From NCBI GenBank assembly GCA_964448935.1, contig CAYVBE010000003.1, forward strand, positions 1 to 55,423: a DNA stretch of 55,423 bases. Direction: 5' to 3'. Made by a program: the position numbers and the translations under genes. Position 1 is the first letter of the stretch. Each line of letters begins with the position of its first letter. Positions 6,494 through 23,163 of the stretch are shown piece after piece. A model generated the notes under the pieces. It ran no database searches and was not told the origin of the DNA. It saw nothing but the letters and a program-made list of their open reading frames with translations. Origin of the DNA: an uncultured candidatus Brocadiaceae bacterium (GTDB lineage: Bacteria > Planctomycetota > Brocadiia > SM23-32).

Positions 6494-9400
6494 TCAGCCG
6501 CCGGACCCGGTCAGCCAGGGCAGCCGGCGGCTCGCCTGCTGGACGTTCCACAGCAGTGTTCCGCCGGACGGCGTGATCGCCAGGCGGACCCCCACATCGG
6601 CGAACATAGACTTCTCCGATTCCAGCGGCTCCGGACCGCCCCCGATCTCCGGCGAGGACAGCGCGCTGGGGCCGCCGGCGTAGAACCGGCCGGTCTCGTC
6701 GCAGAGGAATTCCGCCACGTTGCCGATCACGTGCAGGAATGGCCCGGGACTGCCCTCGCGCACGCTTTGGAACCACAGCAGACCGTCGTCCGCGTCCTGG
6801 GTCTCCGGCGCTCCGGCGTCGTCGTAACCACCCACGTCAAAAGAACCGTCCAGCGGCAGGCGCCGCGAGAGCATGTGCTCCCCTACCATCCGGTTGACGT
6901 ATTCCCACTGCCGCAGCCACGTCCGGTCGCGCAGGTTCCATGCGGGCTCAGCGCCGGGAGCGGCTTCACACGCCGCCCGCGCCGCCTTCCACTCGTCCGG
7001 ACGGGGCAGGCGACAGCGGAGAATCTGTTCCGCAAACAGACGGGCACCGACCCCGGAAAGGTAGCTCATGGGTGAATCCGCGTTGGGCAGCGGTCCACCG
7101 CCCTCCCCGGGCCGCACGCCCTCGGCATACCGCGAAATATCGCTCCAGACGGGGTCCTCGCAGACCCATCGGTCGGCGATCACGATGCGCTCGCGGTCCG
7201 AGACCCAGCACCGCGGTCCCTGGCGCATCAGCCCCCTGCGCGCGTCCAGGTGGGGGCGCATCTCGTCCCACAGGCCGGCGGCCTCCACCGCATCCATGAA
7301 CAGGCCGACGGGGACCTCCGTGACGCACAGATACGCGGGCGATGCACCGGAGCCCGTCGGCTCGACGCGCTCAAAGACCAGCTCGTGTCCCTTCCCCGCC
7401 CACCGGTAGGCGAACCGGCGCGGAAATCCGTCCGCCTCCACGTGCCATTTCGCCCATTCAACCGCGGCGGGGCCCGGCGGCACCTGCTCCGGCTGCTGCT
7501 CGGAATCCAGCAGTTCTTCCAGCCCGGCCAGCGCTTCGGACACGGCCGGGACGTCGCTCACGCCGTCCGGCAATGCGCGGACCGCCGCCGCGAAGTCCTC
7601 CACCCGCCGTCGCACCTGCCCCTCCGAGGGCGCGCCGCTCAGCGAGTCCTCCAGCTCCATCCGCAGCACGTTGTAACGCACACGGGGCGGCAGCGCCTCA
7701 TCCCCCTCCTCCGTGAACTCATCGCACATCCGCACCGCTTCGGCCACGCTGTTCTGCTCGGCAAGACCCTGCACGCAGTCCAGCCATCGCCGCTTCTGCT
7801 CTGCCCGGTATTCCTCATGCAGAACCCCACGCCGCTGCTCCGACGGGATGCCCTCAATGGCCGCGCGCACCGCCGCCCTGAGGTCCAGCTCGGCGCGCAA
7901 CGGCGCCGTGCCCGCCGGCTGCTCGATGCGCCCCAGCCTGCGCCAGGCCGTCAGCACCAGTTCCGGGCGGTCCGACGTCTCGACCAGGCTGAGCAGCTCG
8001 GCCCGGGATGCCCGGCTGTCCGCGGCGACCAGGGCGTCCAAGCGCTCCATCGCCGGCGCCATGGCCCCGGCCACCCGGGAGCGGGCCATGACGTCGTGCC
8101 GCTTCCAGCGATCGAGTATCCGCGCGATCGTCTCCTGCTCATCGGCCGGCGCCTCGTCGGGCCGGTACGCCAGATCCACCATCTGCTCCAGGCGCTCGAA
8201 GTCCGCCACAAGCCGCGCCAGGTCCTGCTGTAGCTTCTCAAAAGCAGCCGCCTCGCGGCGGGCGGCATCGGTCCCGGCAGGCGTGCCCCCTTCCCATTCG
8301 GTCTGCTCCAGCGCGCGTCGGATCGCCTCCTCCCGCTCGTCGGGCAGCGCCTCGCGCAACGCGTCCTTCCAACCCCGTCCGGCCGGCAGTTCGACGACCG
8401 CGGGGAAGAGCTTTTCGATGTCTTTCAGCGACTTCTCGAGGTCCTCGATCCGAGTGCGCCGGTCAACGTAGAGGGACCTGTCGGCCTGCAGCCCCGCCGC
8501 CGTCACGTCTCCCAGAAACCGGTCCCGCCGACGCTCCCATTCGGCGTTGATCGCACCCGAGTCGGAGATGCGCCACCGGCCGCGCATGGCGTCCAGCCAC
8601 TCGCGCGGCGGCATGCAGGAGGGAACATCTTCCCGCAGGCCAAGGACCGCGGCGGCGGCCTCCTCTTTTTCCGCCCGGACCTGCGCCCGATTCATGGCCA
8701 CGGGGGCCACGGAAGGGTAGGCAGCGACCTTCTCTTTCAGAGCGTCGAGCCTGCCCCTCAGCGCCGGACGCCGGGCCTCCGGCTGACAGCCGATATCCTT
8801 CTCCACCATGGTCAGGGTCTGGCGCCACTCCTCGGCGTCCCGCTCGAAATCTCCGGTCAGACGGAAGTAGTCCGGGGCATCGGCCAGCCATGCTTCCAGG
8901 TCCTCGGCCCCTACCGGCTCCCCGAACAGTTCCTCCTCGCGGGGCTGAAAAGAAGGCCAGGCCACCCTTTGACCGTTGTTTCCCAGGAAGTCCTTCAGCT
9001 TCCGGCCGACCTCCTCCACACTCGCCAGCCGGTCCGCGAGGGCCCGCAGGCCCTGCCCCTTGAATTCCATCCGGCCGGTCGCATACCCGGAGAACGCGTC
9101 CACCACCATCGAGTCCGACCCGGCCGCCGCAATGCCCCGCTGCAGTTCCTCGACACGCCTCCAGCGCCCGGCCACCTGCAGCACGAACTCGACGTCCGCC
9201 GCCAGCTTCCGGAGCCTGCTCGCCAGCGCCTCGACGTCCCCGGCCCCGCCGGGCTGCAGAGAATCCCTCAGATACGCGTAGAACGAACCGGAGTCACCCT
9301 TACCGTCCATCCCGGCCAGGCCGGTCTCCAGCGTCTGCGCGGCGGAATCCACGGCCGAAAGGTGCCCGCGCGCGTTCTCCAGCCGCGTGACCAGGGCCTC

Positions 9401-11116
9401 CCCGCCGGCGGCGTCGGCCTCCGCCGCCCAGGCGGCAACAGTGGCCACCATCGGCGGCAAAAAAGCATGTTCCCTCGCGTCAATCCCGCCCGCGACTTCC
9501 TCCGTGGCCCGCCACTGCTGCAGTATCTTCGCGTGAGCCAGGACCTCCTCGACGCCGTCGGCCAGGCGGGGGGCGGGCCTGACCCTGTCCGCCGAAGCGC
9601 GCAGCCGAGCCGCCGTCTGCGGCCAGCCCAACTGCTCGGCCCGCTGCGCGAACCGGCGCACCTGCTCAAGCAACGGCCAGTCCGCCAACTCAAAAGCGGC
9701 CTCGATCGCACGCGCGGTCGAGACCGCTCTTTCCTCCGGCTGCCCGTCCGGGCTCTTGCCGGGGTCGAACTCGGTGCCCGTGGCACGCGCATCGGCCAGG
9801 GCCTGCACCACGTTGCGGTTCAGCCAGGGGTCCGCAACCCACTGATCGTGGTGCTCGCGCGCCCGCGCGTAGACGTCCCCGAACCACTCTTCGTAGGTCG
9901 CCGAATACGCGGACCCGGCGGCATCGTCGGCAGTGGGAGCCTGGCCGGGCGCTTCGGCCTCCGGCTCGGGCGGCCCGCCGCCGCCCCCGAAAAGGAGGGC
10001 GGCCAGCACGATAAGCAGTATGACGACGACCGTGATGATGATCCAGAGCGGTTTGGGCAGGCCCCGGCCGGGGGGCGAAGGGATCGGCTGCCGCTCGCCT
10101 CCCCCGTCCGCTCCGTCAGCCCTGGCAGGCGTGAAGGATTCCCCGCCGGATCGCGCGTCCTCCACCGCACGATCCACATCTTCCACAAACTCGTCGTCCA
10201 GCGTGAAGGGGATGTCGGTGGCCAGCGGCAGTTCGTCCTGCCCGACCGCCAGGCAGAAAAGCTCGTCGGCCGTGGGCGCGCCGGCGATCACGTCCAGCCA
10301 GTCATAGTCCAGCGGCCGCAGCAGCAGCAGGGGCGCATCCGGGTGAAGCTGTGTGCGCATGAAGTCCGTCCATAGCTGCAGGGCTTCCTCCGGCGATTCG
10401 GTGCAGCGCGGGACGCGCATCCTGGCGGGTGGCCTGCCCTCGGCGGCTGCGCCGGGCCGGAAGCTGTCCGGCAGATAGCCGCCCATCTGGCGCTGGATCT
10501 CGTAGAACACCCGGTGGATGTGCTGCTCGCCCTCCGGCAGGTGTTCGGCCAGCCTGGCCAGCGCCGGGCCGCCGGCCTCGGTCACGGGGGCGGAGTCCGG
10601 CACGTCCGCGGCCTGCAGCCGCAACTCCCGGCGCGTGACGTCCAGTATGGAGACGACGTCGTCGGCCGACCCGGCCGCGCTGCACCGCTGCTCGACGTCT
10701 TCCAGGCGGGGCAACACCTCTCTGAGCAGCCAGTCCACCGGCAGGCGCCGGCACTGGGCGCAGACGAGCATGGGGTAGCGACGCCCCTTGGCATCCTGAG
10801 AGGGCCACATGCGGCCGACCACCACGTCCTGGGGCAGGTGCCACAGCAGGACCTGCCGGAACCGGTTCTGGAGGTCCGGGTCCTGAGGATCCCCCCATGC
10901 GCCGGACTGCAAATTGCCTCCGATGCCCTGCACCAGCAGTCTGTCGCGCACACCGATCAGGCGGTGTGTATCGAGTCCCTCGCTCAGAAAATCGCCCCAC
11001 CCCGGGTGCTTGCCGAACGCACCCAGGTGGATACGCTCGTCGCCCCCTTCTTCGGTGCGACGCAACAGCTTGCCCACCACGGTGGAGATGGTGGAGTCAC
11101 CCGGGTGCGCCGTCAT
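6494..11116 (-). CDS. tagF: TagF-domain single-pass membrane protein with a ~1150-aa extracytoplasmic module ending in an FGE-sulfatase-like domain
   Basis: The N-terminus carries the TagF signature (HLGAFGKHPGWGDFLSEGL; WPSQDAKGRRYPMLV). There is one TM helix and a long helical-looking region. The C-terminal ~300 aa have FGE-sulfatase motifs. The ORF-track start is GTG 11137. ATG 11116 has GAAGGAG 7 nt upstream and overlaps the tssM stop as TGATG, so it is the likelier start. Confidence 0.8.
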   Translation of the reverse strand: MTAHPGDSTISTVVGKLLRRTEEGGDERIHLGAFGKHPGWGDFLSEGLDTHRLIGVRDRLLVQGIGGNLQSGAWGDPQDPDLQNRFRQVLLWHLPQDVVVGRMWPSQDAKGRRYPMLVCAQCRRLPVDWLLREVLPRLEDVEQRCSAAGSADDVVSILDVTRRELRLQAADVPDSAPVTEAGGPALARLAEHLPEGEQHIHRVFYEIQRQMGGYLPDSFRPGAAAEGRPPARMRVPRCTESPEEALQLWTDFMRTQLHPDAPLLLLRPLDYDWLDVIAGAPTADELFCLAVGQDELPLATDIPFTLDDEFVEDVDRAVEDARSGGESFTPARADGADGGGERQPIPSPPGRGLPKPLWIIITVVVILLIVLAALLFGGGGGPPEPEAEAPGQAPTADDAAGSAYSATYEEWFGDVYARAREHHDQWVADPWLNRNVVQALADARATGTEFDPGKSPDGQPEERAVSTARAIEAAFELADWPLLEQVRRFAQRAEQLGWPQTAARLRASADRVRPAPRLADGVEEVLAHAKILQQWRATEEVAGGIDAREHAFLPPMVATVAAWAAEADAAGGEALVTRLENARGHLSAVDSAAQTLETGLAGMDGKGDSGSFYAYLRDSLQPGGAGDVEALASRLRKLAADVEFVLQVAGRWRRVEELQRGIAAAGSDSMVVDAFSGYATGRMEFKGQGLRALADRLASVEEVGRKLKDFLGNNGQRVAWPSFQPREEELFGEPVGAEDLEAWLADAPDYFRLTGDFERDAEEWRQTLTMVEKDIGCQPEARRPALRGRLDALKEKVAAYPSVAPVAMNRAQVRAEKEEAAAAVLGLREDVPSCMPPREWLDAMRGRWRISDSGAINAEWERRRDRFLGDVTAAGLQADRSLYVDRRTRIEDLEKSLKDIEKLFPAVVELPAGRGWKDALREALPDEREEAIRRALEQTEWEGGTPAGTDAARREAAAFEKLQQDLARLVADFERLEQMVDLAYRPDEAPADEQETIARILDRWKRHDVMARSRVAGAMAPAMERLDALVAADSRASRAELLSLVETSDRPELVLTAWRRLGRIEQPAGTAPLRAELDLRAAVRAAIEGIPSEQRRGVLHEEYRAEQKRRWLDCVQGLAEQNSVAEAVRMCDEFTEEGDEALPPRVRYNVLRMELEDSLSGAPSEGQVRRRVEDFAAAVRALPDGVSDVPAVSEALAGLEELLDSEQQPEQVPPGPAAVEWAKWHVEADGFPRRFAYRWAGKGHELVFERVEPTGSGASPAYLCVTEVPVGLFMDAVEAAGLWDEMRPHLDARRGLMRQGPRCWVSDRERIVIADRWVCEDPVWSDISRYAEGVRPGEGGGPLPNADSPMSYLSGVGARLFAEQILRCRLPRPDEWKAARAACEAAPGAEPAWNLRDRTWLRQWEYVNRMVGEHMLSRRLPLDGSFDVGGYDDAGAPETQDADDGLLWFQSVREGSPGPFLHVIGNVAEFLCDETGRFYAGGPSALSSPEIGGGPEPLESEKSMFADVGVRLAITPSGGTLLWNVQQASRRLPWLTGSGG
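6497..7414 (-). other. FGE-sulfatase (SUMF1/TagR-type) domain, apparently non-catalytic
   Basis: AYLCVTEVPVGLFMDAV, SPMSYLSGVGARLFAEQILRCRLPRPDEWKAA, HVIGNVAEFLCDE, YAGGPSALSSP, FADVGVRLA. There is no Cys-x4-Cys pair after the GG(S) motif. Confidence 0.7.
9989..10048 (-). other. Transmembrane helix of the TagF fusion
   Basis: LWIIITVVVILLIVLAALLF. R/K residues (GRGLPKP) lie on the N-terminal side and GGGGGPPEPEAEA on the C-terminal side, which fits an N-in topology. Confidence 0.75.
10208..11050 (-). other. TagF (DUF2094-type) domain, predicted cytoplasmic
   Basis: Residues ~30-310, numbered from GTG 11137. The GxFGKxPxxGDF and PSxDxxGRxxPL motifs are as in P. aeruginosa TagF1, recalled from memory. 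Confidence 0.75.
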
Positions 11117-14100
11117 CAAGGACTCCTTCGCGGCCACTTGTCCGGATCGGGAAACGGCCTCTCAAACTCCAGTTTCAGCTTCAGCGGAAGGGTCTCCTGC
11201 TGGAAGGCCATACGCTGAACTTCGAGTTCAACCGTCCACACCTTGCCCCCCTGGTGCGGGCTGGCTGACCAGACGTGCCGCTGCCCGCCCCGGCCGGGCT
11301 CATCTGCCGCCCCTTCGTGCAACAGGCGCACGGCCCCCCACTGTGAGCCGGGCATGATTCGCTTGTCCGGCTGGTCCGGAGCGTCGGCCGGGTACCGGAA
11401 CAGCTCCAACTGGAAAGTGCCCGGCACCTCGACTGTGCCGAGTTCCTGCGCCTCGGGCATCGAGGTGGCGTATGGCTTCTCATTGTTCAGGGCAATGACG
11501 CGCCAGAACCCGACCGTGGTCGTCTCCTGCTCGCTCGGCAGGATGACCACGCACTTCAGCGGTTCGTCCTCGGGCAGTGCGCTCAGCACTGCCGAGACCC
11601 TGTCGAGCAACTCCCGGTCCTCCCGGTCGAACACCTCCGGCCAGCGCAGGTTGTCCAGGCGCCGGTCAATCTCGTCGGAGCCCACCCGCAAGCCGGCGCC
11701 GATGGTCTCCGGCACGGGGGCCGGCAGAATGCGCTCCACGGCCTGGCGCACGAGTGCGATCTCGGCCGTGGTCAGGTCATCGTCGGGATCGCCGGGCGGC
11801 ACGGCCAGCGGGAACCGCAGGTTGGCCTTGATCCTCAGCAGGTCAGGTCGGACCGCCTGCCCCGCCTCCCGCGCCAGCGAGCTGACGCCCTCCAGGGCGA
11901 GGCCCTCCCAATAGTGGAAGGCCAGATCCTCTCCCCTCCCTGACGCCGCCTTCACGGCGTATTCCTCCATAAAACCCGTCGGCCGCAGATTCAAAACGCG
12001 TACGCGGGCGCGCGCGGCATCCTGTCCGGTCAGACCCTGCCAGCCCTGCAGCAGGTCCCCGCAGGCGGAGGCGAACTCCGACTCCGCCCGCAGCGGCTCC
12101 AGCGCATCCACCGCCATCCGGTGAATGCCGTCGTACTGCCGCCGGAGCGCATCGTCTTTCTCCAGCAGATCGTGGGCGAAACGGCAGCTCTCCGCGTCGC
12201 AGTCCAGTGCGCGGATCACCGTCTTGCAGACGCTCATCAGCACGTCGTTCATCACCTTGTGATCCGCCGCCTCCAGCGCGTCGCCGAACTGGCTCCACGA
12301 GGCCGCGCGCGGCAGCATGGCGGTGTTGGGCACGGTATCCGTCCAGTACTCCAGGTAGCGTCGGGCGTATTCCTGAGCCGTCGTCGCCACGGAGGCGTAC
12401 TGCTGCTCCAGCTCGTCCTTGTCCAGAAGCTCCTCCTCGGGATCGCGGATCCGCTGCCCCAGCGCCGACCAGGCCTGCAGAAGCGCCCGCCCGGCGTCCG
12501 GATGCAATTCCGGGGCAAACCCGTCTTCCTTCAGTTGGGTCAGCGGCAGTTCGGGCACGTCCAGGGGGGCGATCCCCCCCTCCGCCACAAGGTCCGCGAC
12601 AGCCTGCTGGAATTCCTCGACCGTGGCCGGGGCGTCTTCCAGCATCCGGCGGGCAAGCTCCGAGCGGCGCATGCGATGGGAGGCCCGCAGCACGAAACGC
12701 CCGCAGTCGGTCGCCTCGCCCACCCGGTAGGCATCGGCGGCGACGGACTCCAGCGCTCCCATCGCGGCGACGGCCTCCTTGAAGTCATCCTCCATGGACT
12801 TCAGCAGCGCGGGCAGCCTGAGCGGGCTGATGTCCGCCTCCCCGGCGTCTCCCAGACCCCGGTCGGCGCGTGAGTAGATGAACAGCCGCGCGCGGTAGAG
12901 CCACGGGGCATCTCCCAGGTCGCCAGCCCCCTCGCCCGACAGGCCGCTGTCCGCCAGGGAAACCGGCGCCAGGAATTCCTGCTGCACCGTCCCCAGGCGT
13001 TCCTCGAAGGGGGTGGCAGCAATCGTGCTCACGGCTTCCTCGGGTTCTTCGGCTGCTTCGGATTCTCCGCCTTCCTCGGCGGCCTCGCCCGCCTCGGGCG
13101 CGGATACCTGCAGCGCGGCCGTCCGTATCCGCTCGGGCAGCCCCGCCACGTCGCCCTCGGCCCATGCTGTCTCCAGCAGTTCGATGATGGCCGCCTCCAT
13201 GGCCTGGAGTTCTCCGGCAAACCCCTTGTGGGCCTCCAGGGTCTCCTCCGCCAGGTCTTCGCGCCACGGCTCGCCCGCCCCGCCGGAGCCCGGCAGGCGC
13301 CCGAAGAACGCCTGCACCCGGCCCTTCAGGTCGTTGCGCGCACGATGGTAGGCAAGCGTGATGTCCCCGGTCTCGGCCAGGCAGGGGGCGGCGGCGATGA
13401 GCTCGTCCAGCGCCTGGCCTTTCTCGCGAAGGGCGCCGTACTTCTCCTCCCATTGGGTCCGCAGGGCCTGGAACGCCGCGGAGTCCTCCGGCAGCCCCCT
13501 GTCCTGCGCCGCGGTCAGAGACGTGAGCAGCTCGGCCTCCGAGTCCCCCAGGCCGGAGAACTGAGCGGCGATCTGGATGAGCTGTTCGGCACACTCATAG
13601 ATGGAGTCCGCGCCGTCCGCACTCTTCAGGGACCGAATAAACGCCGCCAATCCGTTGCGCAGCAGGGAGTTGTCGGAAAACGGTTCCTGCTCGACGACCC
13701 GGTCGGGCGTGACGCACGTGGTGTGCTCTGCACCGGTGTACACCCAGTTCAGGTCCTCCTGGAGCGCCGTAACGTCCTCGGCCGCCAGCTCGCGCTGGTT
13801 TTCGTTGAACACGTAGAAGAAAAGGGGCTTCAGTTGCGGCACGTCGGGCTCACCCTCGGCGGGCTGCTCGGGGGCGGTTGCCGGCTGGAGCTTCCGGGAG
13901 TAGCCCCGCAGGCGCACCAGCTCGACCAGTGCGTCGGTGGCCGCCGGCGACCACGGCCGGTCGGCGGCCCCGGACATCTTCTCGGCCGCCCCCAGCGCCA
14001 GTGGTCCCACCACGCTGCGTTCCAGCAGCTCCGCGTAGGTCCGGGCGCGGTTCTTCTGGGAAAGGCTCTCGCTCCGCAGGGCCGCAGCCAGAGCAAAGAT

Positions 14101-15732
14101 GGCCGGCACCTTAATCTCCTGGCCGCAGAGTTCACGCAGGCGGCCCAGCAACTCCACACGGGTCAGGGTATCACGGGGAGCGGGCGCCTCCTTCTGCCCG
14201 TAGTAGGGGTAAATGTCGCCGGCTTCCGCCTTTGCGGCGATGATGGGCTGCTTCTCCAGCATCTTTCGGGCGCTCATCCACGCGTCGCGGTGCTCGCCCA
14301 CGTGCTGCCTGAAGCCGCCGGCGCCGAGGATGGTCAGCCCGATGAGAACGAGGACCGTGACGATGCCGGCCCCCATCACCAGGCCCTTGCGGCGGCGGTG
14401 CTGTTTTCGAGCGCTGGAGGCCCAGGTGACCAGCCCCTGCTCCTTGAACACCTTGCGGGTGAAGACATCGTGCAGGAAGAAGGACTTCTCCCGTTCCCAC
14501 ACCCGCCCCTCGGGCAGGGACTCCACCGGCACGTCCAGGGCCTCGGCCAGCTCGGCGTCGAGGGCGGCGCCCTCCCGCATGGACGAGGTGAAATAGATGC
14601 CCCGCAGGAACAGCGGTTTGCCGGCCCAGACGCCGGAGGCCGCCACGAAGGTCTTCTCCAGATAGGTCCGCAGCCGGGGCACCAGCCGGTCCAGACTCTC
14701 CGGGAAGGCAAAGGAGCTGTCCACCTCGTCGGCGCGCCGCTTCGAGGGGTCCTCCGGCACGGGGTCCAGCAGCATGCCCAGCGTGCGGGAGCGGATGCGG
14801 TCCATCAACTGCTCCAGGTGCTCGTCCAGCATGTTCGGGTCGAACCGCTCGTCCAGCGGCTGAGGGTTGGACCAGCCCAGCATCTGGTACTCGATGTTCG
14901 GCCCCTGGACCTTTTCGGTGAATTCACGGAACCCGTTGATCAGGTCGCTCTTGGTGATAACGACGAACACAGGGAAACGCAGGTCGCCCAGCGCGCTCTG
15001 GATGACGCCGAGCTGGCGGGAAAGCTTGTTGGCCTTCTCGTTGATCTGGTCAATGGAGTCGGTAATCAGGCTATCGGCCGGGATGGCCAGGATCAGGCCG
15101 TTGATAGGGCAGTTGCGCCGGTGGCGGCGGATGAGCCGCAAGAACTCCTTCCACTCCCCGGAGCCGCCCGCCTCCACTTCCTCGAAGACCAGACGACCCG
15201 CCGTGTCCAGGATGATGGCATGGTTGGTGAACCACCAGTTCATGTTGATGGTGCCGCCCACACCCTGGAATTCGTCGTTCAGGTCCGGCGGAAAGTCCAG
15301 GTTGCTGTGTCGTATGGCCTCGGTCTTGCCGGCGCCGGGCTCGCCGATGATCACATACCACGGCAGGAAGTACGGGTCCTTGCCGTGAGACCTGAGGGTC
15401 TGGACGCCCTCCTGGAACTTCCTGCGCAGTTCCTCCAGCGAGGCGATGCGCTCGGCTTTCTTCACGCCCTGAGGGGTGCTTTTGGCCTGTTCGCCCAGGT
15501 CCTCGTCGAACTGCTTTGCCCGGCGTTTCTGGCGCCATTTGGCCAGGCCCTTGACCAGCCCGACGATGAGGACGACTACCAGACCGGCAATCAGCAGGAA
15601 CCACAACAGCCGGCCGCTGAGCATATTGCGGGCCATGTAGAGGCCCCCCGCCAGTCCGCCGCCGGCCAGGACGAAGATCCCCATTTTCAGCGGCATGGGC
15701 AGATTTGTCAGTGTGGTAAGGCGACGCAGCAT
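11116..15732 (-). CDS. tssM: Type VI secretion membrane-complex subunit TssM (IcmF)
   Basis: 1538 aa. Three N-terminal TM helices, Walker A IIGEPGAGKTEAI, IcmF-family body. Located after tssL as in canonical clusters. Confidence 0.93.
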   Translation of the reverse strand: MLRRLTTLTNLPMPLKMGIFVLAGGGLAGGLYMARNMLSGRLLWFLLIAGLVVVLIVGLVKGLAKWRQKRRAKQFDEDLGEQAKSTPQGVKKAERIASLEELRRKFQEGVQTLRSHGKDPYFLPWYVIIGEPGAGKTEAIRHSNLDFPPDLNDEFQGVGGTINMNWWFTNHAIILDTAGRLVFEEVEAGGSGEWKEFLRLIRRHRRNCPINGLILAIPADSLITDSIDQINEKANKLSRQLGVIQSALGDLRFPVFVVITKSDLINGFREFTEKVQGPNIEYQMLGWSNPQPLDERFDPNMLDEHLEQLMDRIRSRTLGMLLDPVPEDPSKRRADEVDSSFAFPESLDRLVPRLRTYLEKTFVAASGVWAGKPLFLRGIYFTSSMREGAALDAELAEALDVPVESLPEGRVWEREKSFFLHDVFTRKVFKEQGLVTWASSARKQHRRRKGLVMGAGIVTVLVLIGLTILGAGGFRQHVGEHRDAWMSARKMLEKQPIIAAKAEAGDIYPYYGQKEAPAPRDTLTRVELLGRLRELCGQEIKVPAIFALAAALRSESLSQKNRARTYAELLERSVVGPLALGAAEKMSGAADRPWSPAATDALVELVRLRGYSRKLQPATAPEQPAEGEPDVPQLKPLFFYVFNENQRELAAEDVTALQEDLNWVYTGAEHTTCVTPDRVVEQEPFSDNSLLRNGLAAFIRSLKSADGADSIYECAEQLIQIAAQFSGLGDSEAELLTSLTAAQDRGLPEDSAAFQALRTQWEEKYGALREKGQALDELIAAAPCLAETGDITLAYHRARNDLKGRVQAFFGRLPGSGGAGEPWREDLAEETLEAHKGFAGELQAMEAAIIELLETAWAEGDVAGLPERIRTAALQVSAPEAGEAAEEGGESEAAEEPEEAVSTIAATPFEERLGTVQQEFLAPVSLADSGLSGEGAGDLGDAPWLYRARLFIYSRADRGLGDAGEADISPLRLPALLKSMEDDFKEAVAAMGALESVAADAYRVGEATDCGRFVLRASHRMRRSELARRMLEDAPATVEEFQQAVADLVAEGGIAPLDVPELPLTQLKEDGFAPELHPDAGRALLQAWSALGQRIRDPEEELLDKDELEQQYASVATTAQEYARRYLEYWTDTVPNTAMLPRAASWSQFGDALEAADHKVMNDVLMSVCKTVIRALDCDAESCRFAHDLLEKDDALRRQYDGIHRMAVDALEPLRAESEFASACGDLLQGWQGLTGQDAARARVRVLNLRPTGFMEEYAVKAASGRGEDLAFHYWEGLALEGVSSLAREAGQAVRPDLLRIKANLRFPLAVPPGDPDDDLTTAEIALVRQAVERILPAPVPETIGAGLRVGSDEIDRRLDNLRWPEVFDREDRELLDRVSAVLSALPEDEPLKCVVILPSEQETTTVGFWRVIALNNEKPYATSMPEAQELGTVEVPGTFQLELFRYPADAPDQPDKRIMPGSQWGAVRLLHEGAADEPGRGGQRHVWSASPHQGGKVWTVELEVQRMAFQQETLPLKLKLEFERPFPDPDKWPRRSP

Positions 15733-15734
15733 TT

Positions 15735-16463
15735 TCAGTTACCCTCCTCTTCGGGCGACTCTGTCGTGGTCGCGATAGTCGTCTGCCCCTCCGATACGGC
15801 CTTGAGGGATTCTTCCAGTTCTTTGCCCGCGCTTTCGTACAGGGCGACGTTGGCCACGAAGAAGACAATGATCAGGGCAACGAAGATCAGAGCGATGGTC
15901 AGCAGCTTGCGGCCCGGCGGCTCGGTCAGGTCGCGGGTGTCCACGTGCTCGTATGCCTGCGGACAGATCGGCTTGGTCTCGTCCACGTCTATATCGCGGC
16001 GTATGCGGGCGGCAATCTGCTTCATCTTCGCCTGCAGCTTCTCCTCCCGGCGGGCGTACATCCCGGTGAACCCCAGACCGATGCAGGTGTAGAAGACCAT
16101 CAGCCGCTCGTTGGCCTCCTTGCTGTCATCGGCCAGGGTCTCGTCCAGGAGATGGAAGAACTTCTCGTCTCCCGCGAGTTCCTTCAGCTCGTAGGCGATC
16201 CGGTTTTCGTCCCACTGCCGGGCGAATTCCAGATCGCTCTCGGCGATCATGGAGTCCGCGAAGAACACGAGGGGCAGTTTGACGTTTTCGTACTGTTCGG
16301 ACAGCAGGTGGTCGCCGGCGGCGCGGCCCTTCAACTCATCGAACAGAAGGGACTTCATCCGCGCCCGCACCTCTTCCATCTGCGGCTCCGCCCCTTTGCG
16401 CGGAGACCGGTTCAGTGCGCACACGTACTGAAACAGCGGCTCAACCAGCTTCAGCAGTTTCAC
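15735..16463 (-). CDS. tssL: Type VI secretion membrane-complex subunit TssL (DotU family)
   Basis: 242 aa with a GTG start. DotU-like N-terminal domain (LVEPLFQYVCAL...PLVFFADSMI). Single C-terminal TM helix LLTIALIFVALIIVFFVANVALY. Confidence 0.88.
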   Translation of the reverse strand: MKLLKLVEPLFQYVCALNRSPRKGAEPQMEEVRARMKSLLFDELKGRAAGDHLLSEQYENVKLPLVFFADSMIAESDLEFARQWDENRIAYELKELAGDEKFFHLLDETLADDSKEANERLMVFYTCIGLGFTGMYARREEKLQAKMKQIAARIRRDIDVDETKPICPQAYEHVDTRDLTEPPGRKLLTIALIFVALIIVFFVANVALYESAGKELEESLKAVSEGQTTIATTTESPEEEGN

Positions 16464-16464
16464 T

Positions 16465-17841
16465 TCACCCTCCGGTCTCGGTCAGGGTCATGTACAGGGT
16501 AACGTCGAAGTCCGAGGAGGCCATGCCCGGCCAGCGAACGGCCAGGGCCATGTCCTCCTCCACGATCTCCCACAGCTCCCGCTCCCGGGGCTGGTCCACG
16601 CGGAAGTACGTGAGCCCCGGCGGCGAGGGCAGCTCCAGCGGCGTGTAGTGCTCCTCCACCAGCTTGAACCCGAAGACGGCCCGGTCCCCCAGGCTCTTCG
16701 GCATCAGCTTGAATTTGCTGGCGTCCTGCACGAGCTGAATAACGGTGGCGGGGTCCTCCTTGGAGCGCACGCCCAGGTAGTAGGCATTGGGCTCGGTAAG
16801 GTGGCGCTGCTCCAGGTCGGCAACCCAGAACTCCTCCTCCCGTCGGAAGGGCACGCTGAGGAACTTCTCGCCCACGGCACCCTTCAAGAGCGCCCGTATC
16901 TTGTTCGAGAGGTCCTGCAGGGACACCAGGGGGTTGTCGTGGTCGTAGGGCTCCGCCACCTGGTCGCCGGCGCCGGGCGTCAGGGAGGCCAGCTCGCCCA
17001 GAAGGGCCTTCAACTCCACGTAAAGCTCGAAGGGGGTGACCGCCGGCGCCTCCACCAGGCTGGTCAGCCGGGCGGCGTAGCGGTGCAGCGTGCGCAGCCT
17101 CAGCAGCAGCCGCAACTGTGTGCCGCGCACCTCTTCCCGGGTCAGCGTCTCCGGGCTCATCTTGTTGACCAGTTCCTTGCGGCTGGCGTCCACCTGGTCC
17201 GCCAGGTCCCGGGCGACGCCGTGTAGCCTGCGCGACCCGCGCAGCACCAGGCAGGGCGGCGCGAAACCGGGATCCTCGCGCGGCAGGCCCACGTCCTCGC
17301 CCGTGCCGTGGCGCACCCTCAGCAGGGGTATGACCTCCATGTCCGACTGGTCGTCCGTCTCCAGCAGCAGCCGCGCGTTGACGCGGCGGATCACCACGGG
17401 CTGGGCATTCTGGCCGGTGTTCTCATCGAGGCGCTGCGTCTCCTCCAGGCGGTACAGACGCTTGACGCGCCACTGCTCCTCGCCCTCTTCCTCGATGACG
17501 TTGGCCCGACCCTCGTACCATAGCGGCACGCCCAGGTAGATGGTGAGTTCGCCCCCGGAGCCCGCGAACGCCTCCTCGATGTTCAGGGCGGGCAGGTCGG
17601 CGTTTTCGGGCACGTTCACTTCCAGCCCGCCGGGCATCACCACCTGCAGCTGGTCGAACCGCACCAGCATGTTCTCCAGCGCGTCGGGGGACAGTCTTGC
17701 CCGCACCACCCCGTAAGGATAGCTCCAGGCCAGGCGTCTCTCCTGCCGGACCTTCTCCAGCATCCCCCGCTGCATGGACTGAAGGTGGTGAGGTCTGAGG
17801 AAAAGCCCCTCGTGCCAGTGGACGTCGCCGCCGCTCGCCAT
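16465..17841 (-). CDS. tssK: Type VI secretion baseplate subunit TssK
   Basis: 458 aa with the N-terminal signature VHWHEGLFLRPHHLQSMQR. Located directly upstream of tssL. Confidence 0.92.
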   Translation of the reverse strand: MASGGDVHWHEGLFLRPHHLQSMQRGMLEKVRQERRLAWSYPYGVVRARLSPDALENMLVRFDQLQVVMPGGLEVNVPENADLPALNIEEAFAGSGGELTIYLGVPLWYEGRANVIEEEGEEQWRVKRLYRLEETQRLDENTGQNAQPVVIRRVNARLLLETDDQSDMEVIPLLRVRHGTGEDVGLPREDPGFAPPCLVLRGSRRLHGVARDLADQVDASRKELVNKMSPETLTREEVRGTQLRLLLRLRTLHRYAARLTSLVEAPAVTPFELYVELKALLGELASLTPGAGDQVAEPYDHDNPLVSLQDLSNKIRALLKGAVGEKFLSVPFRREEEFWVADLEQRHLTEPNAYYLGVRSKEDPATVIQLVQDASKFKLMPKSLGDRAVFGFKLVEEHYTPLELPSPPGLTYFRVDQPRERELWEIVEEDMALAVRWPGMASSDFDVTLYMTLTETGG

Positions 17842-17856
17842 GCTATCTCCTCTCGT

Positions 17857-18747
17857 TTACCGCTTTTTCCTTCCCGTCTTCAACAGGTCCGCCACAAACT
17901 GCCGATAGGCTTCCATGAACTCCTGCTCGATAGTGCCCTGGTTCATGTCGGCGCCCACTTCTGCGTATTTCTCCCAGTACTTCAACTCCCAGCCCTCGTA
18001 GATGCGCTTGCCGTCAATGCGGGCCAGCGCCTGAATCTCCGAGGGGGCGAACCGCGCGTGCCTGCTTGCAAACTTCTGCAGCGTGGGCTTCAGGGCGGCC
18101 AGCAGGGCCAGCAAAGTGCGCCGCAGGTGCGAGAGCAACGTCTCCAACTGTGTCGCGTCGTCGTCCGTGCCGCGCGCGAGGAAACGCTTCAGGACGGCCA
18201 TCATGTCGCCCTCGTAGGGCGCACCGCCCGACACCCCCAGGTTACCCCAGACCTTCTTCAGGTGCTGGTCCAGCTTGCTGCTGAACCACGCCAGCAGGAC
18301 CAGGGACCGCGCCATGCGCTCCGCCGGAACGGCCTCCACCTCCAGCACTTCCGTCATTGCCGAAGAGCCGGAGGAAGCCCGCCTGACCGGCAGGCCGGCC
18401 TCCGCCAGACGCCTCGCCAGGTCCTCCCGCGCCTCCGGAGGCAGGGAACCCACCAGCGCGATCAATTCGTGAAGCTGCTCCTCTTCGCTGACGGGGGGGC
18501 CAGGGGCCGGGGCAGCGTCCTTGCGGGCCCGGCTGCCGGGGAGCGCGCGCGGAAAGTGCTCGCCCAGCCTGTTCAGGAAACGGCGCCGCTCCTCGTCCGA
18601 TGCGCCGGCCAGCGCCCGGCGCACCTCCCGTGCCAGGTGCTTCCGCCGTTCCTCCGCCGGAGCGTCGGCAAAATCCACCTGCAGCAGGCGCAGCCTGTTG
18701 GCCGCCTGCTGAACCCGCCTGTCCAGTTCGCTCATCGCCTGAGGCAT
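17857..18747 (-). CDS. Fha/TagH-position protein resembling only the C-terminal part of TagH; no FHA domain
   Basis: 296 aa. Occupies the fha1 position of the H1-type order (fha-...-tssK-tssL-tssM-tagF). The C-terminus (SHLRRTLLALLAALKPTLQKF...FAPSEIQAL...KYWEKYAEVGADM...EQEFMEAYRQ) resembles the recalled TagH C-terminal domain pattern. No GR...SRxH FHA motif anywhere. GGGAGAAAGG Shine-Dalgarno upstream. Confidence 0.45.
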   Translation of the reverse strand: MPQAMSELDRRVQQAANRLRLLQVDFADAPAEERRKHLAREVRRALAGASDEERRRFLNRLGEHFPRALPGSRARKDAAPAPGPPVSEEEQLHELIALVGSLPPEAREDLARRLAEAGLPVRRASSGSSAMTEVLEVEAVPAERMARSLVLLAWFSSKLDQHLKKVWGNLGVSGGAPYEGDMMAVLKRFLARGTDDDATQLETLLSHLRRTLLALLAALKPTLQKFASRHARFAPSEIQALARIDGKRIYEGWELKYWEKYAEVGADMNQGTIEQEFMEAYRQFVADLLKTGRKKR

Positions 18748-18903: not shown

Positions 18904-21900
18904 TCACCGCCCGGCGCTCTCGACAGCACTCAGGTCACTGCGCAAGTAGCCGGCATGTTCTCGCAGCGCCTCCCGCAGGCCCCATGCCAGCGACTCTCCC
19001 GTCGGGGAAAGCGCCAGCCGAAGCCCGATGTCCGAGTAATGCGTCGAGACGTCCTGCTGCGACAGGGGCTGGGCCTGGAGAGGGGGCACATCCGGGGAGC
19101 TGAGCGCCGACCCTCCCACCACGTAGTAGCGGCCGGCATCATCGCTCAGAAACTCCGCCACGTTCCCGATCAGATGGCGGAAGGGATCGCCTCGCGGAGC
19201 CTCTACGCTCTCGAACCACAAAACCCCGTCGCTGCCGTCGTAAGCTCCGGCGACGGCGGCGCCCAACTGCTGCCGGAACACGCCTTCGTTCGGCCACCGG
19301 GGCCGGACCATCTCCTCCTGCACGCGGCTTTCCACGTAGCGCCACTGGCGCGCGTAGGTCTCGTCGCGCAGGTTCCAGACCGCCGGGCTGATCTCGGCGT
19401 TCACCAGTTCGGCGGCCTTTCGCCATTCCGCCGGCGTCGGCAGACGGCAGTTCATGACCTCCCCGGCGAACTGCCGCGCACCCTCGGCGTTGATCCAGTG
19501 CATGGGGCAATCGCCCTGCGGGGGCGGCACGTTCAGCCCCTCCGGGTAGTCCGTCGTCCACTCGGGGTCGGGCGTGAGCCATCGGGTCCCCGTCGCGATG
19601 CGCTCCCCGTCCCATTCCCAGCCGCGCGGTCCCCTCGGGCTGCCACGGGGGTCGAGGCGGGGCTTGAGGGCGGGCCATTGGCCGGCAGCCTCGACCGCCG
19701 CTGCGAAAAGGGATACGGAGACCTCCCGCGTGGACAGATAGCCCGGCGGCGCCCCGTCCGGCTCGACGCGCACAAAGGTCAGCTGGTGGTCCGTGCCCGG
19801 CCACGAGTAGGCCACGCGCTCCGGAAAGCCGCTCTCGTCCACCCGCCACGCGCCCCACGCCACCTGCCGCGGACCCGCGGGAGGCGCAACACCGGGCTTC
19901 TCGTCATTCAACAGCGCGTTGACCTCACCCACGAGGCCCGCCACCGGTCCGGCCGCCTTCAGCCCGTCCGGCAGGCCTTCCACCGCCGCCAGGAAGCCCT
20001 CGGCCAGCGGGCGCGCCTTCTCCTCCGCCGGCAGCTCCGTGCCGGTCACGGCCTCCGACAACTCGTAGAGCAGGGCATCGTAGCGCGCCCAGGCCGGCAT
20101 CTGCTCCGCCGTCACGCCGAACTGCTCTCTCAGGTCCAGCGCGGCCTCGATCTCGTCGCGGTCCGACAACTGCTCGAAACCGCGCACCCAGCGGCCCGGC
20201 CGCGCCGCTTCACGCCCGGCCTGCAGCTTCTCGCTGCGGTCGGCGTCGGTCAGCCCGTTGATGAACCTCTGCGCCCTGCCCCGCAGCTCCAGCGCTTGCC
20301 GCAGGTCAGCCAGTCCGCCCGGCCAGGACACCTCGTCCAGCCGGCGCCAGGCCGTCACCACCAGTTCCACCCGGTCGGCGCTCTCGACCAGCCGCACAAG
20401 CTCGGCGGGGGACTCCGAAGCATCCGCCTCCATCAGGGCGTGAACGCGCCCGAGAACAGGCTCCAGCGCCTCGGCAACCCAGTCCCTGGTCAGCACGCCG
20501 TGGGCCCTCCAGCGCGCGGCTGTCTCGGCGATCGTGCTCTGCCCCTCGCCGGGCGACTCGTCGGGCCGGTAGGCGAGGTTCAGCAGGCGTTCCAGGCGGT
20601 CGAAATCGTCAACAAGCTGCCGCAGGTCCTCCTGGAACTGCGCGAACGCATCGGCCTCCTGCCGCAGCGCATCCGTGTTCGTCGGCCTGCCGTCCTGCCA
20701 TTCCAGACCTGCCAGGGCGTCGCGGAACACCGCCCGTCGCCCCTCGGGCAGGGCCTTCCGCAGGCTGTCTTTCCAGCCCGGCCCCGCCGGCAGTTCTGCG
20801 GCCGGGGGAAACATACCCTCGATCTCTTTCAGCGCCTTCTCGATCTCCTCCACCACCGCCCGGAGTTCCACGTAGCGGGTCCTGTCGGCCTCCAGCGTCT
20901 CCGCCGTCACGTCGGCGATGAGCCGGGCTCTGCGGCGGCGCCACTCCGCGTTGACCGCCTCCGAGCCGCCGATCTGCTCCTTGGAGCGGACCGTCTGCAG
21001 CCAGTCGGCCGGCGGCAGAACGGGCGGCACCTCGGCCAGGAAATCGTCCACGCTCTTCGACAGCTCGTCCCGCCTGTTGCGGATCGTGTCCTCGTTCTTC
21101 GCAACGGGCGCCAGCTTTGCGAAGGCGCCGATGTCTTCCCGGAGCCCGGGCAGCTTCTCCTTCAGGTCCCGGGACTCGGCCAGTCCGAGCTGAATCCCGT
21201 CCTCTATCTCCTTCTCGGCCGCATCCAGCTTCTCGTTCCACAGCCGCACGGTCTGCCCCGGGTCCACGCTCAGCCGGAAGTAGTTCGGCGCCTGCGCCAG
21301 CCAGTTCTCCAGGTCTTCCGCCGCCACCGACTCCGCCGGCAACTGCTCCTCGACCGGCCGGAACAGCTCCTTGTCCACCCTCTTCCAGTCCCCTTCCAGG
21401 AATTCCTTCAGGCGCCGTCCGACGGACTCGGCCGCCTCCAGCCTGGCCTTGAGGGCAAGGAGGCCCTCCTGCCGGAACTCAACCTGCGCCGCGGCGTATC
21501 GAGAAAACGCGCCGGCCACCTCGGAATCCGGGCCGGCGGCGATTTCCATCTCCAGCTTTGCCACGTTCTTCCGGCGCAGCACGACCTGCTGGACCAGCGT
21601 CACGTCCTCCTCGAGCGTCTTCAGTTCCTGCGCCACCCCTGCCAGGCTGTCCGCCGCGCCGGCCGCCATGAGCTTGCTCAGATATCTGGCAACCGCCCCG
21701 TCGTCGCCTTCCAGGGCCTTCGCAAGCGTGCTGCCCGCTTCCTGGATCGTGGTCACGTGAGCGTCCGCCTCCTGCAGCCACTCCAGGAAGGGCTGCGCGC
21801 CGGCCGCCTGGGCCTTCCGGGCCTCTTTGCGCAGAAGCGTCAGAAGATGCGGCAGGGAGCCCTGGCCCTCCTGCACGCTCCGGACCCGGCTCTCCAGCGC

Positions 21901-23163
21901 ATCCCATTGCCTGCGGACCTCGCACAGCACCAGCAGCTCGTCCACGGCGGGCCCCAGTTCCGCACAGAGATGCAGCTTCTGCAGGTGTCCTCGCACGGTG
22001 TTGGCCGTCTCCTGCCAGCCCAGCTCTGCGCAGGCGGCGGCAAAGGTCTCCATCTGGGCCGCCGCCGGCCAGGAGGATTTCGCCTGCTGCAGGGCTCCCT
22101 TCACCTCGTCCACGGTCTTCACGGCGGTGGTGTCGGCTTGCGGGCCGGACACGGTGGCCTCCGTGAAATCCACCCCCATCGCGCGCCCCCCCAGGATGGG
22201 CGTGACGACCTTTTCGTCCAGCCAGGGGTCCGCGCCCCAGCGTTCGCCCTGGTAGCGCTCGTAGACCGGCCCGAACCAGGTCCACGTCTCCACCCCATCG
22301 GTGTCCGCCCCGCCGTTCTGCCGTCCATCGCGCAGGACGAACCACGCCCCTGCCCCCGCAAGCGCCAGGACCGCCAGTCCGACAAGCACGTAGCGGAGCG
22401 GGGCTCTCTTCCCCTCCCGCAGGCCGTCGAGGGCCGCCGCCAGGTCATCCAGCGTCTGCAGGTCGGCGGGCAGCGAGGGCTGCAGCAGTTTGTTGCACAG
22501 TTCCAGCCACTCCTCGTGCCGGTCCCCCAGGCGGCGCCATTCGGGGGTTGACTCGACCGGCCACGGGGTGGTGTCCCGCAGTTCACGGTGGAGGACGAGC
22601 TGGTATATCAGCCGTCCGAAGGCGCGCAGGTCGCTCTCCCCGTGCTCGGCGCGTCTGAGTTCGGTATCCGGCAGCGGATCGGTGAGGAAGACGCAGGGGG
22701 CGGCGCCCTTTCCCACCAGCAGGTTGGAGGGTTTCAGGTTGCCGTGCGGACGGTCACCGGCCGCCTTGAGTTCCCGCAGGCCCTCCACCACGGAGTCCAG
22801 CAGGGAGTGGAGGTCCGGCCCGCCCAACCGGATGCGGCCGGTGATCAGGTTCTCGACGGACTGAGGGTAGCGGTCGGTGACGTAGTATGCGCCCTGCCCG
22901 TCCGCAGTGGAACCGTAATCATGGACGGGGGCCCAGCGCCGCGCGCCGGAAGCCACCACCTGCTGCTGCAGCCGTGCGGCCTGCAGCAGCGCCTGAGCCC
23001 TGGAGCGCTGGCCCTCCTCGTCCCAGAAAGCGGCCCCCGGCTCCTGGGCTTTGACCGCAAGTCCGTCCCCAGCCGACCCGTCCTTCGCGCGTGCAGCATA
23101 GACCACGCGGCCACCAACACGGTATAGTTCCCGGGTGGTCTCGTAGTCCCCAAAAACAGGCAT
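18904..23163 (-). CDS. PpkA-like Hanks-fold (probable pseudokinase) single-pass membrane protein with an FGE-sulfatase-terminated ectodomain
   Basis: 1419 aa. N-terminal kinase fold (LAVKA, YYVTDRYP, HGNLKPSNLL, FLTDPLP, SDLRAFGRLIYQLV). One TM helix. Then a ~1130-aa module colinear with the TagF-fusion ectodomain. GAGGAGG Shine-Dalgarno before ATG 23163. Confidence 0.8.
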   Translation of the reverse strand: MPVFGDYETTRELYRVGGRVVYAARAKDGSAGDGLAVKAQEPGAAFWDEEGQRSRAQALLQAARLQQQVVASGARRWAPVHDYGSTADGQGAYYVTDRYPQSVENLITGRIRLGGPDLHSLLDSVVEGLRELKAAGDRPHGNLKPSNLLVGKGAAPCVFLTDPLPDTELRRAEHGESDLRAFGRLIYQLVLHRELRDTTPWPVESTPEWRRLGDRHEEWLELCNKLLQPSLPADLQTLDDLAAALDGLREGKRAPLRYVLVGLAVLALAGAGAWFVLRDGRQNGGADTDGVETWTWFGPVYERYQGERWGADPWLDEKVVTPILGGRAMGVDFTEATVSGPQADTTAVKTVDEVKGALQQAKSSWPAAAQMETFAAACAELGWQETANTVRGHLQKLHLCAELGPAVDELLVLCEVRRQWDALESRVRSVQEGQGSLPHLLTLLRKEARKAQAAGAQPFLEWLQEADAHVTTIQEAGSTLAKALEGDDGAVARYLSKLMAAGAADSLAGVAQELKTLEEDVTLVQQVVLRRKNVAKLEMEIAAGPDSEVAGAFSRYAAAQVEFRQEGLLALKARLEAAESVGRRLKEFLEGDWKRVDKELFRPVEEQLPAESVAAEDLENWLAQAPNYFRLSVDPGQTVRLWNEKLDAAEKEIEDGIQLGLAESRDLKEKLPGLREDIGAFAKLAPVAKNEDTIRNRRDELSKSVDDFLAEVPPVLPPADWLQTVRSKEQIGGSEAVNAEWRRRRARLIADVTAETLEADRTRYVELRAVVEEIEKALKEIEGMFPPAAELPAGPGWKDSLRKALPEGRRAVFRDALAGLEWQDGRPTNTDALRQEADAFAQFQEDLRQLVDDFDRLERLLNLAYRPDESPGEGQSTIAETAARWRAHGVLTRDWVAEALEPVLGRVHALMEADASESPAELVRLVESADRVELVVTAWRRLDEVSWPGGLADLRQALELRGRAQRFINGLTDADRSEKLQAGREAARPGRWVRGFEQLSDRDEIEAALDLREQFGVTAEQMPAWARYDALLYELSEAVTGTELPAEEKARPLAEGFLAAVEGLPDGLKAAGPVAGLVGEVNALLNDEKPGVAPPAGPRQVAWGAWRVDESGFPERVAYSWPGTDHQLTFVRVEPDGAPPGYLSTREVSVSLFAAAVEAAGQWPALKPRLDPRGSPRGPRGWEWDGERIATGTRWLTPDPEWTTDYPEGLNVPPPQGDCPMHWINAEGARQFAGEVMNCRLPTPAEWRKAAELVNAEISPAVWNLRDETYARQWRYVESRVQEEMVRPRWPNEGVFRQQLGAAVAGAYDGSDGVLWFESVEAPRGDPFRHLIGNVAEFLSDDAGRYYVVGGSALSSPDVPPLQAQPLSQQDVSTHYSDIGLRLALSPTGESLAWGLREALREHAGYLRSDLSAVESAGR
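18907..19815 (-). other. FGE-sulfatase (SUMF1/TagR-type) domain, apparently non-catalytic
   Basis: YLSTREVSVSLFAAAV, CPMHWINAEGARQFAGEVMNCRLPTPAEWRKAA, HLIGNVAEFLSDD, VVGGSALSSP, YSDIGLRLA. No catalytic Cys pair. Confidence 0.7.
22333..22392 (-). other. Transmembrane helix of the PpkA-like protein
   Basis: YVLVGLAVLALAGAGAWFVL, preceded by REGKRAPLR, which fits an N-in topology. Confidence 0.7.
22459..23163 (-). other. Kinase-like domain with substituted catalytic motifs
   Basis: HGN replaces HRD (Asn codon AAC at 22738-22740). The Gly-rich loop is degenerate (YRVGGRVVY). DPL replaces DFG. No clear APE motif. Confidence 0.65.

Follow-up and report, generated by a model that had tools for sequence, protein, structure and literature searches.

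The last gene of a type VI secretion system (T6SS) cluster from an uncultured candidatus Brocadiaceae bacterium encodes a TagF protein that continues through a membrane helix into a large predicted ectodomain. The cluster lies on contig CAYVBE010000003.1 (assembly GCA_964448935.1), of which positions 1 to 55,423 were analysed; this whole stretch is called the window in the following. The data support that 6494-11116 on the minus strand is one real gene, which codes for a TagF domain followed by one transmembrane (TM) helix and by a large, predicted extracytoplasmic region with a non-catalytic FGE fold at its C-terminal end. The TagFs known so far are soluble, reside in the cytoplasm and measure about 210-330 amino acids (aa). 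A transmembrane form was found neither in full-text searches of the literature nor in a 2026 accessory-factor review nor in a recent TagF survey, which covers 655 homologues in four clades and mentions no membrane-spanning member, in agreement with the first-pass annotation of this DNA, which knew of none. The architecture suggests a direct control of T6SS firing from outside the cytoplasm, and we put the probability that the protein is a TagF tethered to the membrane, with its inhibition dependent on a cue from the envelope, at roughly one half.

The fusion gene, its TagF domain and its membrane helix

The gene and its parts are the following.

6494..11116, minus strand: TagF-fusion gene (TagF, TM helix, helical module, FGE-like head; 1540 aa), from the list of open reading frames (ORFs); stop codon at 6494-6496
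11114..11128, minus strand: start region of the fusion gene, with AAGGAG at 11128-11123 and a TGATG overlap, by direct reading of the sequence
10127..11044, minus strand: TagF domain, aa ~25-330, two-subdomain TagF fold, predicted cytoplasmic (Pfam, residue spacing, AlphaFold2 (AF2) and Foldseek)
9989..10048, minus strand: single TM helix LWIIITVVVILLIVLAALLF, aa 357-376 (hydropathy scan, family conservation, AF2)
7517..9931, minus strand: all-alpha module, aa ~396-1200, predicted extracytoplasmic, without known relatives (AF2)
6497..7486, minus strand: non-catalytic FGE-fold (TagR-like) head, aa 1211-1540 (family profile, AF2, Foldseek)

The longest ORF (6494..11137, minus strand) begins at an upstream GTG and would give 1547 aa, and the ATG at 11116 gives 1540 aa. 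This ATG (11116-11114) overlaps the TGA stop codon of tssM (11118-11116) as TGATG and stands six bases behind an AAGGAG, so that the 1540-aa product and the coordinates 6494-11116, already proposed in the first-pass annotation, are well founded. The same overlap and AAGGAG make translational coupling to tssM probable. Neither a promoter nor a terminator was detected in a scan of the region downstream of the fusion gene.

A frameshift or an assembly error near the membrane helix could in principle have merged two genes. However, the metagenome protein P0001 from an independent assembly (93% identity) is an equally uninterrupted ORF of 1540 aa, and the continuous TagF-TM-ectodomain architecture recurs in at least 24 species-level loci of metagenome-assembled genomes (MAGs) from different species and in 61 long representatives. 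The junction is itself conserved in the family. The independent assemblies with the same continuous ORF rule out the artefact, whose probability we regard as practically nil, and the first-pass view of a single gene holds.

The N-terminus is matched by Pfam TagF_N (PF09867) at aa 32-123 (nt 10748-11023) with 30.7 bits against a gathering threshold of 27 (E 3.5e-7), and with 32.6 bits when it is scanned alone. Of the two family models it is Pfam that is passed, as NCBIfam TIGR03373 reaches 33.8 bits, under its cut-off of 41.2. The conserved residues of Pseudomonas aeruginosa TagF (PaTagF; PA0076, structures 2QNU and 6IZ8), G8, K9, D15, F16, G74, S79, D81, R85 and P88 (Lin et al.), correspond to G35, K36, D42, F43, G101, S106, D108, R112 and P115 of the fusion with a constant offset of +27, i.e. 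the loop residues GK, DF, G and S-D-R-P stand at identical spacing in both proteins. They are invariant or almost so across the TagF clade of the Planctomycetota-Verrucomicrobiota-Chlamydiota (PVC) group. The DW pair of PaTagF (D30/W32), which like GK, DF and S-D-R-P belongs to the conserved alpha/beta-loop residues that PaTagF and AtTagF require for their function, is D57/L59 in the fusion, the change of W to L being the only replacement.

A phmmer search of the whole fusion protein against PDB sequences gave zero matches. Since the PVC TagF clade is very diverged in sequence, residues 1-1200 were modelled with AF2 on a 62-sequence alignment (mean pLDDT 82.8; about 90 or more over aa 25-330) and compared by fold. 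In Foldseek against the whole PDB the best seven matches of this model are all TagF proteins. The top match is TagF of Acinetobacter baylyi (ACIAD2683, 9T0N; E 1e-6, prob 1.0, TMt 0.55, 340 columns), whose full 324 residues are covered, and the P. aeruginosa structures 6IZ8 and 2QNU rank next, so that the fold is common to the fusion and both known proteins. Furthermore, the gene directly follows tssK-tssL-tssM, as known TagF genes directly follow tssM. Pfam score, residue spacing and fold show that the N-terminal ~330 residues are a complete TagF, as the first-pass annotation had read them from the sequence; its expectation for the model scans held for TagF_N at the N-terminus and failed for a direct FGE-sulfatase match at the C-terminus. 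The protein thus passes as a TagF in sequence, fold and context and departs from the known ones in solubility only, through the conserved TM helix and a C-terminal extension of 1164 aa.

The helix LWIIITVVVILLIVLAALLF is the sole strongly hydrophobic segment of the fusion (Kyte-Doolittle mean over 19 residues up to 3.37). It is preceded closely by R351 and K355 and followed by an acidic stretch, which agrees with the helix at nt 9989-10048 and its positive residues on the TagF side noted in the first reading. It is found at the equivalent position in nine of nine full-length relatives, and the AF2 model has a helix at 357-375, with linkers of low confidence on both sides (aa 333-356 and 377-394). 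The predicted topology has the TagF domain inside, one helix and the ectodomain outside, because an N-terminal signal sequence is missing, TagF needs access to the baseplate in the cytoplasm, and the kinase-like domain of a paralogous receptor described below would lie on the same side.

The ectodomain and its counterpart on a kinase-like receptor

Beyond the helix 1164 residues follow, close to the ~1150 of the earlier estimate. The larger part of them, the helical module (aa ~396-1200), has no sequence match in Pfam, NCBIfam or PDB. It is entirely alpha-helical in the AF2 model, with pLDDT above 90 at aa 400-530 and 760-1200, and it is conserved throughout its length both in the family and in the paralogue at 18904-23163. 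No significant Foldseek match was obtained in the PDB, the best hit outside TagF having E 0.23 and prob 0.14. A DUF2240 match at aa 962-1032 (16.9 bits) is under the cut-off and was taken as noise.

The C-terminal head carries the motifs RLPRPDEWKAA, GNVAEFLCD and DVGVRLA, which align with RLPTEAEW, GNAWEW and GFRCA of human FGE. Pfam FGE-sulfatase gave no match at E<=10, neither in the whole fusion protein nor in C-terminal fragments, and PF03781 matches seven of nine family members. A profile of 22 family sequences finds human FGE (2aft) with E 1.5e-6 over the span of the domain. The AF2 model of the head (pLDDT 86, pTM 0.86) matches FGE 6muj in Foldseek (E 2.9e-7, prob 1.0, TM-score 0.40-0.48) and in addition EgtB, OvsA, CalU17, CarF and PorK. 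The assignment of an FGE fold to the head accordingly stands on the family profile and the predicted model, not on the single-sequence scan. The modelling and fold comparison of the ectodomain that the first-pass annotation had suggested therefore ended in an FGE fold for the head and in no significant neighbour for the helical module.

No cysteine is present between GGPSALS and DVGVRLA, the site of the copper-binding catalytic CxxxxC pair in FGE. The segment aligned to the cysteine pair, GGPSALSSPEIGGGPEPLESEKSMFADVGVRLA, is free of cysteine, no cysteine of this segment is conserved among 22 family sequences, and the family reads GGSALSPPE... at the positions of the catalytic cysteines. The head without its cysteine pair is therefore a non-catalytic FGE scaffold, which bears out the earlier reading of FGE motifs lacking the catalytic residues.

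A second protein of the cluster carries the same ectodomain.

18904..23163, minus strand: paralogous receptor, 1419 aa (BLASTP, family profile)
22414-23163, minus strand: kinase-like domain of the paralogue, aa 1-250, with HGNLKPSN (family profile)
22330-22404, minus strand: TM helix of the paralogue, aa 254-278

Its ectodomain (aa 296-1401) is homologous to that of the fusion, with 40% identity over 1133 aa and 739 bits in BLASTP, and Pfam FGE-sulfatase reaches 23.0 bits on the protein against a gathering threshold of 23.3. The N-terminal 260 aa have no Pfam match; the family profile of this domain matches 338 kinases in the PDB, with StkP as the best (E 1e-6). Lysine K38 of the VAIK motif is invariant in the family, and D162 at the DFG position and the asparagine of the catalytic loop are almost so. 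The aspartate of the HRD motif, which a Hanks kinase has besides the VAIK lysine and the DFG aspartate, is replaced by N142, with asparagine in all sequences aligned; the full H-G-N-L-K-P motif is present in 24 of 30 relatives. Because this aspartate is changed to asparagine throughout, the sequence comparison predicts a pseudokinase or an atypical kinase. Relatives of the paralogue are named hypothetical or 'SUMF1/EgtB/PvdO family'.

As the same ectodomain stands behind the kinase-like domain and behind TagF, the sensor is common to the PpkA-like arm and the TagF arm of the cluster. The ectodomains of both types were compared by pairwise BLASTP scores in three genomes only. The pair within the genome of the window scores 739 bits and that within L004 398 bits, against 215 and 189 bits for ectodomains of the same type across genomes; in L066, for which the C-terminal halves were compared, the values are 154 bits within and 132 and 112 bits across genomes. 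In the window, in L004/L080 and in L066 the TagF-type and the kinase-type ectodomain of one genome are mutual closest relatives. From the sequence scores this suggests a concerted evolution or a repeated duplication of the pairs.

FGE folds without catalytic function also occur in T6SS immunity. The non-catalytic FGE-domain protein Tsi3 confers immunity by binding an effector, i.e. its fold acts as a protein-binding scaffold in a T6SS setting, as the head of the fusion may do. By this analogy the head could serve as an immunity protein or decoy that captures T6SS effectors in the periplasm, either incoming ones or those of the cell itself. However, Tsi3 proteins are small and stand-alone and their homologues are located beside effectors in vgrG-effector-immunity modules, whereas the fusion gene follows tssM in the core block, and its head is fused to TagF and recurs on the kinase-like receptor. 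An immunity function is thus very improbable.

Distribution of the family and genes of the cluster

A scan of one genome per species yielded 403 relatives, almost all from Planctomycetota (Phycisphaerae, Pirellulales, Planctomycetaceae) and Verrucomicrobiota. Nearly all are named hypothetical and lack a precomputed Pfam hit. In a profile search of 1.84 billion representatives 1018 hits were obtained; among the best 150, which are representatives at 50% identity, 61 have a length of 1460-1890 aa. The loci fetched contain 70 untruncated TagF genes, about half of them for soluble proteins (~325 aa), 33 with a TM helix after TagF and 24 of the long FGE-headed form. In tail-anchored TagFs of ~390 aa (P0041-44; L007, L025, L030, L046, L051) the protein ends soon after the helix. 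Proteins of a shorter form (~700-750 aa) have a low-complexity spacer between the TM helix that follows TagF and a canonical FGE-sulfatase domain, which scores 52-78 bits in Pfam; their genes are located after tssM in MAGs of Verrucomicrobiota and in one MAG labelled Acidoferrum. The search for the TagF-TM-FGE architecture proposed in the first reading was thereby rewarded with 24 long-form loci and 61 long representatives, besides the short forms.

The architecture is that of a large unannotated PVC family, with a gradation that begins at soluble TagFs, passes over tail-anchored ones and reaches the FGE-headed proteins, both short (~730 aa) and long (~1500 aa). Since the FGE head is kept in both the short and the long forms, it is the element of the outer part that stays constant, and two kinds of spacer occur, one of them the helical module. 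Membrane anchoring of TagF is selected on its own, because tail-anchored TagFs of ~390 aa exist. No relative carries the Pfam annotations TagF and FGE-sulfatase together, and the architecture is therefore invisible in domain-architecture listings. The nearest MAG (L001/L002) is labelled 'candidatus Brocadiaceae', and other relatives belong to Phycisphaerae and other Planctomycetota. The G+C content of Brocadiaceae genomes is much lower than the 62-71% of the window, and the label of the MAG may be unreliable.

The window holds a complete T6SS cluster on the minus strand. It begins with tssA, tssB, tssC, hcp (39870-40370), tagJ, tssE, tssF, tssG, clpV, vgrG, a DUF4123 adaptor and PAAR, and continues with several genes without hits, the 1419-aa receptor gene, orf296, tssK, tssL, tssM and the TagF fusion. 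Its last part is a conserved block.

11116..18747, minus strand: conserved block orf296-tssK-tssL-tssM upstream of the TagF gene (Pfam VasE, DotU, IcmF-related_N)

It stands ahead of the TagF gene in nearly all related loci and was recovered in most of 79 loci and in L080 and L081. The latter two also share with the window the longer order of a 648-aa gene, lipoprotein, kinase-like receptor, orf296, tssK, tssL, tssM and TagF. In L080 the last gene is a long fusion but in L081 it encodes a soluble TagF of 319 aa, so the kinase-type receptor is not tied to the fusion.

The gene tssM (11116-15732, minus strand) encodes 1538 aa, of which IcmF/TssM models match only aa ~44-501. Against NCBIfam TIGR03348 the protein scores 290 bits, under the cut-off of 388, and its periplasmic part of ~1000 aa is divergent. 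No Pfam TssJ was found in the window. The two ectodomains could hence be imagined as parts of a trans-envelope scaffold that offsets the atypical TssM and the missing recognisable TssJ, with the TagF-like domain as an assembly factor and not a brake; the almost invariant orf296-tssK-tssL-tssM-tagF block is in line with such a function. However, close clusters with the same core have a soluble TagF (L081 and about half of the loci), which means that the ectodomain is not an essential structural part, and the cluster contains two lipoproteins, either of which might be TssJ. Consequently, we regard a structural accessory role as unlikely.

These two small lipoproteins are paralogues (23194-23811 and 23851-24357, minus strand) encoded just upstream of the kinase-like receptor, with the lipoboxes ..LAATGC.. 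and ..LAVSGC... They have no Pfam or NCBIfam match; one candidate role is that of TssJ, another that of an outer-membrane partner of the FGE heads similar to TagQ. One such gene each is present in L080 (179 aa) and L081 (172 aa).

Two further genes are conserved, orf296 (17857-18747, minus strand) beside tssK and orf648 (24382-26328, minus strand) beside the receptor gene; their counterparts in L080 and L081 have 309 and 339 aa and 658 and 641 aa, respectively. Neither has a match in Pfam, NCBIfam or PDB-profile searches, which identified no Fha substitute, and both are possible stand-ins for Fha. A stretch ..DLYSLGVLA.. of orf648 resembles a motif of the kinase C-lobe, a resemblance that no search backs.

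A probable effector region (26379-30526, minus strand) comprises the DUF4123 adaptor, the PAAR protein, which is extended at its C-terminus by a glycine zipper, and several ORFs without matches (orf165, orf199). Directly upstream of tssA, a DUF5649-repeat protein of 3184 aa (43687-53241, minus strand) adjoins a ShlB/FhaC-like transporter (53310-55319, minus strand), and both together look like a two-partner secretion pair. A ShlB-like gene is also found downstream of the TagF gene in L081.

Known systems and the proposed mode of control

Unlike the known soluble TagFs, the fusion has the TM helix and 1164 further residues, and no Fha partner was detected in the window. In Agrobacterium tumefaciens TagF-PppA (Atu4331) the TagF domain is likewise the N-terminal module of a bigger regulatory protein, but this protein is wholly cytoplasmic and combines TagF with a PP2C phosphatase, without membrane span or ectodomain.

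The closest mechanistic precedent, by analogy of arrangement, is the TagZ-TagF pair of Acinetobacter. The T6SS of Acinetobacter is devoid of Fha and of a phosphorylation pathway; its TagF binds Hcp and needs no Fha to act. The single-pass protein TagZ brings this TagF to the membrane; it binds TagF through a short cytosolic peptide and has a periplasmic part predicted to be disordered (bioRxiv 10.64898/2025.12.08.692957). Both arrangements place TagF at the inner membrane by means of a single-pass element, part of which would lie in the periplasm. However, the tether of Acinetobacter is a separate protein, while that of the fusion is covalent and its outer part is large, folded and conserved.

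A second parallel is the TagR/TagQST/PpkA pathway of the H1-T6SS of P. aeruginosa, in which an FGE-family domain outside the cytoplasm is tied to post-translational T6SS control, as it is in the fusion. COG1262 is the FGE/SUMF1 family. TagR, which works with PpkA, is listed as COG1262 in a 2026 review, and the first-pass description of TagR as an FGE-family protein agrees with this listing. PpkA/Fha overcomes the TagF inhibition of membrane-complex assembly. In contrast to TagR, a free periplasmic protein that acts on PpkA and is accompanied by TagQ, TagS and TagT, the FGE head is here fused to the receptors, the brake included; the resemblance is one in kind. PpkA itself has its counterpart in the transmembrane PpkA-like protein of the cluster, which is without the catalytic aspartate. 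No homologue of TagQ, TagS or TagT and no PppA was detected in the cluster.

Ser/Thr kinases are reported among the members of the PF03781 family. Those with PF03781 ectodomains have a cytoplasmic output, one TM helix and an FGE fold outside, a layout common to the fusion and its paralogue. The fusion differs in that its output is TagF and that a helical module of ~800 aa is inserted ahead of the head.

As the first-pass annotation proposed, the protein may repress the T6SS through TagF, and this repression may be gated by a ligand or by damage. It would be a bitopic inner-membrane protein, the helical module holding the non-catalytic FGE head off the membrane. The helix would keep TagF at the inner membrane beside the assembly site of TssL, TssM and TssK, a cis version of the role that TagZ plays in trans. 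The head may bind an envelope partner or cue after the manner of periplasmic TagR with PpkA, and the binding would shift the oligomeric state, conformation or position of the receptor and so locally relieve or impose TagF inhibition. The paralogous pseudokinase receptor could read the same cue or pair with the TagF receptor via the related ectodomains. An activator arm and a brake arm would then act on one input, probably without a step of Fha phosphorylation.

A bolder form of this proposal, which we consider rather doubtful, is that the PVC group controls T6SS firing by paired single-pass receptors, a TagF brake and a dead-kinase nucleator. Their ectodomains with FGE heads would co-evolve and bind either one another or one shared envelope cue, and so make up a phosphorylation-independent transmembrane switch in place of TagQRST-PpkA-PppA-Fha.

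Several observations speak against a cue-controlled TagF. The profile of the PVC TagF clade, which is strongly diverged, did not recover TagF among PDB sequences. The topology was derived from one hydropathy scan and a weak positive-inside bias, and the 30 residues preceding the helix hold three K/R against five D/E. Family scans of the ORFs of the window detected no FHA protein, the classical target of TagF, and no PP2C phosphatase; the wiring of P. aeruginosa is therefore not simply transferable. Some TagF fusions seem to be without the upstream paralogue (L040), and L081 combines the paralogue with a soluble TagF, so that the pairing is not obligatory. Finally, inhibition by TagF in Acinetobacter persists without the periplasmic domain of TagZ (bioRxiv 10.64898/2025.12.08.692957) and tail-anchored TagFs manage without an ectodomain, so that TagF function as such does not depend on one.

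This last point also favours the main rival of a signalling function, a passive tether or spacer in which helix and ectodomain fix TagF at the membrane, perhaps via peptidoglycan or the outer membrane, and transmit no signal. That anchoring alone is useful is evident from TagFs with almost no ectodomain, and the spacer of the short forms is of low complexity. However, about 1160 conserved and confidently folded residues would be costly for an anchor. The FGE head is moreover retained in two size classes and is common to the receptor-kinase-like paralogue, an arrangement typical of signalling proteins. We hold the passive tether to be possible, if somewhat doubtful.

No other post-translational brake of the T6SS is as widespread as TagF, whose release is a matter of debate; Fha phosphorylation has been proposed in Pseudomonas and Serratia, and spike loading and TagZ in Acinetobacter. 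In a TagF joined across the membrane to a TagR-like, folded ectodomain the input of the brake would be visible in the protein itself. The cluster furthermore reveals a paired pseudokinase receptor with the same sensor, and the FGE fold appears as an envelope-facing module that was repeatedly recruited for T6SS control. The transmembrane TagF with an FGE-headed ectodomain is real, widespread and unannotated, while its regulatory logic is what we infer from these comparisons. For Planctomycetota and Verrucomicrobiota, in which these genes are all annotated as hypothetical, it provides a first functional handle on the regulation of the T6SS.

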